In this document: positions 52,382 through 53,787 of the stretch, piece after piece
How the letters are laid out: each line of letters begins with the position of its first letter
How positions within the stretch are numbered: the first letter of the stretch is position 1
Source of the DNA: an uncultured bacterium
Lineage (GTDB): Bacteria > Chlamydiota > Chlamydiia > Chlamydiales > FEN-1388
Direction of reading: 5' to 3'
DNA length: 64,000 bases
NCBI GenBank assembly: GCA_964487845.1
Contig: CAZASK010000009.1
Location: 5 to 64,004, forward strand
Position numbers and translations under genes: made by a program
Notes under the pieces: model-generated
Told to the model about the DNA's origin: nothing
The model's database searches: none
What the model saw: the letters and a program-made list of their open reading frames with translations, nothing else

Positions 52382-52476
52382 ATCACCAGAGGTGCCTCAC
52401 GATGAGGCTGAAAGGTTTGCATAAGCAAGCTAACTCTTAATACCTGATCTAGGTCGTACTAGCGTAGGGAGAGTGA
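52382..52476 (+). promoter_or_regulatory. TPP (THI-box) riboswitch aptamer
   Basis: GGTGC-CTCACGATGAG-GCTGAAA ... TACCTGATCTAGGTCGTACTAGCGTAGGGA aligns to thiM-type GGGGUGC..CUGAGA...ACCUGAUCUGGAUAAUGCCAGCGUAGGGA. P1 is TCAC/GTGA. Downstream are a GAGTG/CACTC hairpin plus T-run (52472..52503) and a TCTCTC/GAGAGA helix over the SD. Confidence 0.8.
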
Positions 52477-52545
52477 GGGAAGATATGCACTCTTGTTTTT
52501 TTTCTAGTAGCACTCCCTCTCTCATAAAAACGGGAGAGATGTCCT

Positions 52546-53787
52546 ATGAAAAAATATGCACGCTATCAAATTGCAGGAATGGTTGGTAACATCCTGGAAC
52601 ATTATGATAGCGCTCTTTTTGGGCTATTAGCACCTTGTTTAGCTCCTCTTTTCTTTCAACAAGATCCTCTCACAGCGCTTATTATGACGTATGGTATCAT
52701 CCCGCTTGGTTTGATTACCAGGCCGCTTGGCGCGCTTTTTTTTGGAAGAATAGGGGATATATATGGAAGAAAACAGGCGCTTTCTTTGTCGCTTCTAGGC
52801 ATGGCTGTTGCAACAGTTGGTATTGGTATGCTGCCTACATATAATGAGGTAGGATGTTGGGCGCCAATTGGATTAGCCTGCATGCGTATGTTACAGAGCT
52901 TTTGTGCGGCAGGGGAGTCAGCAGGCGGTGCCATTTTCGTTTTAGAGCATACACGCCTACAAACAAGAAGTATCATGAGTAGCTTGTACGATGCATCTAC
53001 TGTAAGTGGCATTCTCTTGGCTTCCGCATTGGTTACGATTTTAAGTGTAATTGGGAAGGCGGAGTGTCTCTGGCGGGGTTTATTTTTTGCAGGAGCTTTC
53101 ACGGCTGTTATGGGTGTGATAATTCGCTGTTCAATTGACGAAAGTCATCTTCTTCCAGTAAATAAGAAAAATGGCATACAAACTATTTTAAGATCGCATC
53201 TCAAGCCCTTTATAGCCATTATCTGCTGCTCTGGTTTTGGGCATATTACCTATTCATTAGCATTCGTCTTGATGAATGGATACATTCCGCTTGTGACATC
53301 GCTTACGCAAGCTGATGTTATGCAGATAAACACCTATTTGCTAGTCATTGATATGCTTGCGCTGCCATGTTTTGGTTATATCGCTTCTCGTGTTGGGAAA
53401 GAAAAAGTGATGATCACAGCATCGCTCTTTTCTGCGATATGTGCTATCCCGCTCTTTCAGTGCCTTGATCAAGCGTCGATGGCTACTGTAGTGGGCGTTA
53501 GGTTGTTGCTTGTTACAGTGGGTGTGGCATTTGCAGCGCCCTATTATGCATGGGCAATCGATCGCGTTTTGCCAGCTCATCGCTATACTGTTTTATCTCT
53601 TGGCTCTGCTCTGGGATCACAGCTTATTGGTGCTCCTACATCTGCTGTTTCATTATGGCTTTATCAGGAGACAGGATGGATGGGGGTTCCTGGTGCGTAT
53701 CTACTTGTTTTTGGATTGTTGGCAGCTTATGCTGTATGGAAAACAGCCCCTCAAAAAACAGCTTGTGCAGCAGTGAGTGCTGGGTGA
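52546..53787 (+). CDS. MFS transporter, metabolite:H+ symporter (MHS)-like
   Basis: 12-TM layout. GRIGDIYGRKQALSLSLLGMAVATVGIGMLP is the MFS loop 2-3 motif in its MHS style. Directly preceded by the TPP riboswitch. Confidence 0.8.
   Translation: MKKYARYQIAGMVGNILEHYDSALFGLLAPCLAPLFFQQDPLTALIMTYGIIPLGLITRPLGALFFGRIGDIYGRKQALSLSLLGMAVATVGIGMLPTYNEVGCWAPIGLACMRMLQSFCAAGESAGGAIFVLEHTRLQTRSIMSSLYDASTVSGILLASALVTILSVIGKAECLWRGLFFAGAFTAVMGVIIRCSIDESHLLPVNKKNGIQTILRSHLKPFIAIICCSGFGHITYSLAFVLMNGYIPLVTSLTQADVMQINTYLLVIDMLALPCFGYIASRVGKEKVMITASLFSAICAIPLFQCLDQASMATVVGVRLLLVTVGVAFAAPYYAWAIDRVLPAHRYTVLSLGSALGSQLIGAPTSAVSLWLYQETGWMGVPGAYLLVFGLLAAYAVWKTAPQKTACAAVSAG

Follow-up and report, generated by a model that had tools for sequence, protein, structure and literature searches.

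Which protein brings vitamin B1 into environmental chlamydiae, and could it be a permease that stands behind a riboswitch for the finished cofactor? The question is raised by one locus in a 64,000-nt stretch of contig CAZASK010000009.1 from an uncultured bacterium of the Chlamydiales (the window, hereafter), in which an aptamer of the thiamine pyrophosphate (TPP) class directly precedes a gene for a 413-amino-acid permease (52546..53787, + strand) of the major facilitator superfamily (MFS). A first-pass annotation of the same DNA had called the leader a TPP riboswitch and the permease, of the metabolite/H+ symporter (MHS) type, a candidate importer of thiamine or a precursor. Among open-access full texts, no paper was found that names the vitamin B1 route of environmental chlamydiae or a riboswitch in these organisms. 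The reading developed here, which we consider probable, is that a canonical TPP aptamer heads the mRNA of an MHS-like permease and functions as a TPP-responsive OFF switch, and that the permease supplies the cell with a thiamine vitamer taken up from the host.

The TPP aptamer and its conservation in chlamydial loci

The whole window was scanned with cmscan against the 4227 families of Rfam 15 at gathering thresholds, and the TPP family RF00059 matches at 52378..52488 (+) with 68.3 bits, where 54.3 would suffice for gathering (the E-value, 2.7e-11, takes in all 64 kb and every family). The match is full length (model positions 1-105 of 105), includes unstructured flanks, and is both the sole riboswitch and the sole TPP match at gathering in the window. 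The structured core extends from P1 to P1′ (52383-52476, +). In the structure line of the RF00059 alignment, P1 is formed by a 5′ strand UCAC (52383-86) and a 3′ strand GUGA (52473-76), next to which C52387 and A52472 make a non-canonical pair, and the remaining + strand helices are P2 (52388-91/52434-37), P3 with GCCUC/GAGGC (52394-98/52404-08), P3a (52415-19/52426-30), P4 (52443-46/52465-68) and P5 with CTAG/CTAG (52449-52/52459-62). The GGTGC element occupies 52391-52395 (+), and the pyrophosphate-sensor arm of P4 and P5, ACCTGATCTAGGTCGTACTAGCGTAGGGA (also written ACCUGAUCUAGGUCGUACUAGCGUAGGGA), occupies 52442..52470 (+). Every upper-case consensus position of this arm and of the junctions (ACCUGAUC...GCGUAGGGA) is matched, and a G-to-A change in P2 is offset by C-to-U on the partner strand, turning a G-C into an A-U pair. 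Together with the covariation of the helices described below, the RF00059 score, which was the check proposed in the first-pass annotation, bears out its riboswitch call, and the THI-box elements that it listed are all present where it had placed them.

Whether orthologous genes keep the riboswitch was addressed with 80 ortholog loci from species-representative genomes, which were fetched with a profile of 23 homologs and scanned for RF00059 together with flanks of about 3 kb (approximately 516 kb in total). The family matches directly 5′ of the permease gene and on the same strand in 36 of the 80 loci above gathering, and in seven more below it (40.6-52.7 bits, E 1.6e-7 to 1.6e-4), the latter having been recovered by a covariance model built from the above-gathering aptamers and then confirmed by Rfam. 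A TPP aptamer thus stands immediately upstream of the permease gene in 43 of the 80 loci, which answers the question posed by the first-pass annotation, and at the gathering threshold no TPP match occurs elsewhere in the approximately 516 kb. Two further loci hold partial elements, one a fragment cut by the contig end (L012) and the other a degenerate 3′ half (L042), and the loci lacking an aptamer mostly have a short upstream spacer or an abutting same-strand open reading frame (ORF). Every deep branch of the protein dendrogram includes aptamer-positive loci, with permeases 41-58% identical to that of the window, and this distribution implies an association that is probably old and has been patchily lost. 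The flanking genes vary among 81 loci, the commonest being an epimerase gene (11 loci), a PagL-like gene (nine) and BioY (eight), and since they are not conserved the aptamer travels with the permease gene alone.

The RNA structure itself carries the mark of selection. For the covariation test, 37 aptamers were aligned with MAFFT without fitting to a structure, and the RNAalifold consensus recovers P1, P2, P3, P3a, P4 and P5, with 97.1% of helix cells paired and compensatory double changes in 13 of 20 pairs. None of 500 column shuffles matches these values, and pairing falls to 31-58% when the partners are slid by one to three columns. The P4 and P5 helices are paired throughout (100%) and show compensatory changes in five of their seven pairs. 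Retention across deep branches together with this covariation implies that the aptamer RNA has been under purifying selection, as judged by comparison of the sequences.

The single deviation of the window aptamer at a strongly conserved position is in the pyrimidine-sensor (J3-2) motif at 52408..52413 (+), which reads CUGAAA for CUGAGA. The first-pass annotation had singled out this deviation; it is present, and it is not peculiar to the locus, as about half of the chlamydial aptamers share the A. Among 45 chlamydial aptamers including that of the window, GCUGAAA occurs in 21 and in the window, GCUGAGA in 21 and GCUUAAA in one. The two major variants are interleaved on the tree and all 22 aptamers with CUGAAA lie upstream of intact genes, and the change is a lineage-wide polymorphism and not a local oddity. 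The fifth base of the motif stacks on the pyrimidine ring of the ligand in the thiM structure, and since either base is a purine, the G-to-A substitution is plausibly tolerated for ligand binding by analogy with that structure.

Several ortholog loci depart from the common arrangement. The degenerate element (L042:1767-1845) has an intact P4/P5 half, lacks the P2/P3 half and the CUGARA motif, scores 30 bits with our own covariance model, has no RF00059 match, and looks like a decaying riboswitch. In four aptamers the variable P3 region is lengthened by 40-80 nt (L056:2828-2973, L063:2718-2874, L002:2757-2941 and L047:2845-3012), and because of these insertions their Rfam scores lie at or below gathering. 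At another locus (L001:2504-2990) the TPP aptamer is 377 nt 5′ of the permease gene and is followed by its own anti-Shine-Dalgarno/Shine-Dalgarno hairpin, a small ORF of about 87 amino acids to which no family could be assigned (ATG near 2681, stop 2943), a GC-rich hairpin with a T-run, and finally the Shine-Dalgarno sequence of the permease; here the riboswitch may control the inserted small gene. A group II intron catalytic domain (RF00029, 60.9 bits) lies about 2.4 kb 5′ of the riboswitch in a groundwater chlamydial metagenome-assembled genome (MAG; L022:29-104). The permease is also present, in many cases with a chlamydial-type aptamer, in 12 MAG records whose titles give Verrucomicrobia/Verrucomicrobiae, 'Chlamydia trachomatis' or 'Waddlia chondrophila WSU 86-1044' (L002, L005, L007, L011, L016, L017, L020, L021, L029, L051, L059 and L078), and these taxonomic labels look unreliable.

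The expression platform and the direction of control

The 3′ strand of P1 ends at 52476 and the permease ATG at 52546 starts 69 nt later, in keeping with the spacing of 70 nt given in the first-pass annotation, and the intervening linker holds the elements of a translational switch. The Shine-Dalgarno (SD) sequence GGGAGAGA (52532..52539, +) is 6 nt 5′ of the ATG, and its positions 52532-38 are paired with a probability of 0.97-1.0. Their partner is the 3′ part (52517-23) of a pyrimidine tract, CACUCCCUCUCUC (52511..52523, +), which has analogous tracts in orthologs and functions as the putative anti-SD sequestor. The resulting helix of CUCUCUC with GGGAGAG (7 bp, -10.1 kcal/mol) is the SD-sequestering helix already described from the first reading and is present in every predicted fold. 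A candidate anti-sequestor is the purine tract GGGAGAGUGAGGGA (52467..52480, +), which overlaps the 3′ strand of P1 and begins, at the 3′ end of the aptamer, with a GGGAGAG (52467-73) that is an exact copy of the SD sequence. Between its segment 52471-80 and 52514-23 a helix of -12.3 kcal/mol is possible (-16.0 kcal/mol for the duplex in RNAduplex), and this pairing is mutually exclusive both with P1 and with the SD sequestor, a three-way exclusivity that yields the OFF-switch logic of thiM. Enforcing the aptamer raises the cost of opening the SD and the AUG from 8.2 to 14.3 kcal/mol.

Control of the permease would thus most likely be exerted by translational repression. At high TPP concentration, the ligand would lock P1 and P4 and hold the purine tract at 52467-80 inside the aptamer, leaving the pyrimidine tract at 52517-23 free to pair with the SD at 52532-38 and to block translation initiation (OFF). 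At low TPP concentration, the SD-copying purine tract of the open aptamer would compete for the pyrimidine tract, making the SD easier to expose, in an ON state that is presumably kinetic. We infer ligand binding, the direction of regulation and its translational level from these features of the leader.

The orthologous leaders fall into two designs. In the compact design, found at about 19 ortholog loci, the start codon follows 7-18 nt after the GCG of P5/P4 (e.g., GCGUAAGGAGAGUGGAUG), the only possible SD is the AGGGAG or AAGGAG within the aptamer, the 3′ strand of P1 lies between SD and AUG, and the predicted N-termini match the window protein within a few codons. With this layout, the ribosome-binding site must become inaccessible once the ligand stabilises P1 and P4. 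The extended design of the window and about 23 other loci (e.g., L029, L003, L020, L002, L022, L040 and L039) consists of a pyrimidine-rich tract, an SD hairpin and the AUG, and in 15 of 23 extended leaders the aptamer 3′ purine tract and the SD find their best partner in one and the same linker segment.

A different mechanism, premature transcription termination, would account for another element of the window leader, a hairpin (52470-75/52488-93, with a 12-nt loop) that is followed by a T-run, UGUUUUUUUU (TGTTTTTTTT), the whole spanning 52470..52503 (+). The hairpin and T-run reported in the first-pass annotation do exist, and stronger leader hairpins with a U-run (-13.8 to -21.6 kcal/mol) are found in four orthologs (L002, L020, L039 and L041), so that transcriptional or dual control may operate in parts of the permease family. 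The hairpin of the window is weak, however, with a stem of 6 bp and -5.0 kcal/mol, or up to 7 bp and -8.1 kcal/mol when extended, and it was not called by a terminator scan of the region. Its 5′ arm consists of the 3′ strand of P1 and part of P4, and for that reason it requires an open aptamer and would cause termination at low TPP, the wrong direction for an importer. In the fold with the aptamer enforced, the U-run is base-paired to AAAAAA in codons 2-3. Moreover, 17 of 24 extended leaders lack such an element, and leaders of the compact class leave no space for one. Regulation of the window gene mainly by termination at this hairpin and its T8 is consequently unlikely, and an intrinsic terminator was rejected as the main OFF mechanism; the hairpin probably belongs to the ligand-free ensemble or is incidental.

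The permease and its cargo

The gene under this predicted translational control encodes a candidate importer of thiamine or thiamine phosphates that has a well-known fold. Pfam assigns it to MFS_1 and Sugar_tr, and the top NCBIfam match is TIGR00883 (MHS), which aligns end to end (residues 14-392 on model positions 1-398 of 400) with 220.8 bits and E 3e-65, below the curated cutoff of 443.45. The next models are ProP, TcuC and ShiA with 132-146 bits, and models of characterised members score 106-146 bits overall. The MHS-type assignment of the first-pass annotation therefore stands as the best family match and does not extend to the curated cutoff, and 'MHS-like MFS permease' is, on sequence, a defensible label where strict MHS membership is not. 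An AlphaFold2 model based on 23 homologs is all-helical with a canonical MFS fold (predicted local distance difference test score 88, predicted template-modelling score 0.87), and its Foldseek neighbours are XylE, PfHT1, GLUT1/3, SV2A and PiPT at 10-18% identity, with template-modelling scores of about 0.7-0.8 for XylE, PfHT1, GLUT1/3 and SV2A. No close solved homolog was found by PDB sequence search, and PDB and Foldseek return generic MFS proteins that give no clue to the substrate. There are 543 detectable homologs, of which the top 120 are 52-62% identical and chlamydial where named. Only MFS families were matched in Pfam and NCBIfam, and the models for ECF S-components, PnuC, SSS, NCS1 and ABC thiamine transporters were not.

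What, then, does the permease carry? A TPP-sensing OFF switch is in keeping with the uptake of thiamine or one of its derivatives, and the cargo would be thiamine, thiamine monophosphate (TMP) or TPP, to judge from the regulatory sequence. The idea of a thiamine-related importer that the first-pass annotation had put forward is strengthened by the presence of the aptamer in 43 of 80 loci despite varying flanks. The choice between thiamine and TPP or TMP hinges on whether these genomes possess a thiamine pyrophosphokinase (TPK). A Rhabdochlamydia symbiont has been reported not to make B vitamins including thiamin (bioRxiv 10.1101/2022.05.31.494226), and the compact riboswitch-permease pair is present in two MAGs labelled Ca. 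Rhabdochlamydia (L049 and L050).

Several observations weigh against the reading of the locus as a TPP-controlled thiamine importer. In the Pfam and NCBIfam comparisons the permease showed no sequence similarity to a characterised thiamine transporter, and 35 of the 80 orthologs have no aptamer. No conserved thiamine gene adjoins the permease in the neighbourhoods of 81 loci, and thiamine-metabolism genes, which are absent beside it in every locus, were not seen among the 56 window ORFs scanned either. A Pfam scan of 46 further ORFs of the window, nine of them also compared with NCBIfam, showed neither such a gene nor a thiamine kinase. The fifth base of CUGAGA, which stacks on the ligand in thiM, is A in the window RNA, for which TPP binding is predicted. 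In equilibrium folding the SD is paired (P >= 0.97) in the unconstrained ensemble too, and the T-run hairpin and the sequestor together (approximately -18 kcal/mol) outweigh the anti-sequestor (-12.3 kcal/mol). Because equilibrium folding keeps the SD paired either way, the ON state has to be argued kinetically. Equilibrium folding was accordingly rejected as a demonstration of the ON/OFF switch, as the SD is paired in all ensembles and only its opening cost differs. A linker-shuffle control over 23 extended leaders gives a mean z of about -0.9, which is weak support and is explained by the retention of the pyrimidine bias on shuffling.

The aptamer-less orthologs, the leader that retains only a degenerate 3′ half and the substitution of the window aptamer at a highly conserved position would also be expected if the pairing were functionally uninformative, with the aptamer a decaying relic or the permease a carrier of an unrelated solute. 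This is highly improbable, since the score of the window aptamer exceeds gathering by 14 bits, its helices contain compensatory changes such as the G-C to A-U exchange in P2, the purifying selection implied above acts against it, and the A variant is found in 22 aptamers upstream of intact genes. Salvage of a thiamine precursor or breakdown product such as hydroxymethylpyrimidine or thiazole, in the manner of CytX, ThiXYZ, ThiW and ThiU, is supported by the many TPP-regulated transporters that carry precursors (PMC6593275). Mostly complete thiamine pathways have been reported in some Parachlamydiales MAGs (bioRxiv 10.1101/2023.03.17.533158), and for this reason precursor salvage is possible in some lineages. 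A cargo consisting of precursors alone is disfavoured in Rhabdochlamydia, where precursors would be useless without thiamin synthesis, and none of the 80 loci showed thiD, thiE or thiM close to the gene, so that we regard precursor uptake by this permease as distinctly unlikely.

Direct import of the phosphorylated cofactor, TPP or TMP, from the host cytosol under the same riboswitch is a serious possibility, if a doubtful one. In the host cytosol thiamine occurs mainly as TPP, and such import would suit a carrier of the MHS type for anions or zwitterions and a parasite without thiamine kinases. The characterised members among the MHS relatives move carboxylates and zwitterions (ProP, TcuC and ShiA being the next-best models), the canonical pyrophosphate-sensor arm is kept, which suggests that the cell monitors TPP itself, and no gene for a thiamine kinase or pyrophosphokinase was seen in the window or the flanks of the loci. 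The search for kinases covered 64 kb and the 3-kb flanks only, however, from which a genome-wide absence of TPK or ThiL does not follow; most importers controlled by TPP riboswitches carry unphosphorylated thiamine or precursors, and the sequence favours neither thiamine nor TPP/TMP as the substrate. A more elaborate proposal, in which the permease is the chlamydial proton-coupled route for TPP (or TMP) from the host cytosol, kept under the only riboswitch of the window with a CUGAAA motif tuned to the lifestyle, is rather speculative. The preferred reading remains that of an importer of a thiamine vitamer, whichever of its forms is taken up.

Neighbouring genes and comparison with known systems

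A candidate σ70-like promoter (TTGTCA, a 17-nt spacer and TATGCT; 52347..52375, +; nine of 12 consensus matches) ends just 5′ of the aptamer and would set the transcript start at about the 5′ strand of P1, and as sites of this kind are no more numerous in the region than expected from shuffling, it is a positional lead only. Upstream of the riboswitch lie genes for ArgR (48705-49163), an amino-acid ABC transporter (49156-51403) and myo-inositol oxygenase (51439-52341), and downstream of the permease is a tRNA gene (53857-928), followed by a Tet-like MFS gene of opposite orientation; in the reading preferred here the permease mRNA is monocistronic. The stretch at 48705-51403 comprises ArgR followed by the substrate-binding protein, permease and ATPase of a polar amino-acid ABC transporter, and it resembles the operon for arginine transport that is known to be under ArgR control in Chlamydia. 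The oxygenase gene (PF05153, 330 bits), a member of a mainly eukaryotic family, immediately precedes the riboswitch, an order that recurs on an independent contig (L081). Two small overlapping ORFs (54014-54644, -), which separate the tRNA gene from the Tet-like MFS gene, are likely to be a toxin-antitoxin pair, the downstream one matching the addiction-module antidote family dnstrm_HI1420. At eight loci, among them L075:4396-5067, a BioY biotin-transporter gene adjoins the permease on the opposite strand; most of these loci fall in a Simkaniaceae-like cluster without the riboswitch, and the arrangement gives a weak hint of a vitamin-transporter neighbourhood.

The chlamydial origin of the DNA is supported by the 80 related loci, all of which come from Chlamydiota-type MAGs, and by proteins of the window with Chlam_PMP repeats and with Ank, LRR and WD40 domains, and the window fits an environmental chlamydia. 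Its eukaryote-like repeat proteins, which form a cluster (14929-17985, 41665-43047, 43273-44787, 44924-46159 and 46184-47026), comprise a 1018-amino-acid ankyrin and LRR protein, a WD40 protein, a Chlam_PMP-repeat beta-helix, a second ankyrin protein and a collagen-repeat protein, and look like candidate host-interaction factors.

The attachment of a TPP aptamer to one permease through deep chlamydial divergence is strong guilt-by-association evidence, and it supplies a concrete, clonable 413-amino-acid candidate for an unassigned step, the uptake of thiamine or TPP. If correct, the assignment would extend the MHS branch of the MFS to a new class of substrate, and the list of bacterial thiamine transporters would gain a family. 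The ortholog set also forms a series of expression platforms, from an aptamer-embedded SD to an extended anti-SD hairpin, and offers a natural G/A polymorphism at a near-invariant position of the ligand pocket, both of which are material for the study of riboswitches.

The nearest regulatory model is the translational TPP riboswitch of the E. coli thiM type (RF00059), with which the window leader shares the P1-P5 architecture, the conserved junctions, the position in the 5′ leader, a downstream SD-sequestering helix and the complementarity of the aptamer 3′ segment to the sequestor. It differs in the CUGAAA motif, common to half of the chlamydial set, and many orthologs differ further in being ultra-compact, with the aptamer's own GGGAG or AAGGAG serving as SD. 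On the protein side, the MHS family (TC 2.A.1.6/TIGR00883; ProP, KgtP, ShiA and TcuC) is the best-scoring one and shares the end-to-end alignment and the MFS fold, whereas the permease scores far below the family cutoff and sits in a chlamydial clade of its own; no MHS member with a role in thiamine transport was found in the open-access literature. The transporters predicted from riboswitches (ThiT/YuaJ, YkoEDC, ThiXYZ, CytX, PnuT, ThiV, ThiW, ThiU and NiaP) follow the same logic of a TPP aptamer directly 5′ of a transporter gene in an organism needing external thiamine, and the window permease belongs to a different protein family, having no Pfam or NCBIfam match to the ECF S-component, PnuC, SSS or NCS1 models. 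NiaP is itself an MFS protein. The novelty that the first-pass annotation saw in an MFS protein behind a TPP riboswitch thus narrows to the MHS type, for which no precedent in that role was found, MFS proteins as such being already linked to TPP riboswitches through NiaP and fungal transporters.

In open-access full texts, no report of a chlamydial TPP riboswitch or of an MHS-type thiamine carrier was found. The described classes of bacterial thiamine transporters comprise ABC (ATP-binding cassette; ThiBPQ), ECF (energy-coupling factor; ThiT and YkoEDC), PnuT and NiaP systems (PMC9026889), to which ThiV, ThiXYZ, CytX, ThiW and ThiU are added for thiamine or its precursors (PMC6593275). Fungal TPP riboswitches control DUR31 and MFS transporters, and these resemble the chlamydial pair in that a secondary transporter is implicated in thiamine uptake, but they are eukaryotic and splicing-based and their transporter families are unrelated (PMC5997356, PMC5882874). 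The nomination of a transporter by a TPP riboswitch is a known approach, and what the chlamydial locus adds is a pairing that is ancient and widespread in the Chlamydiota.

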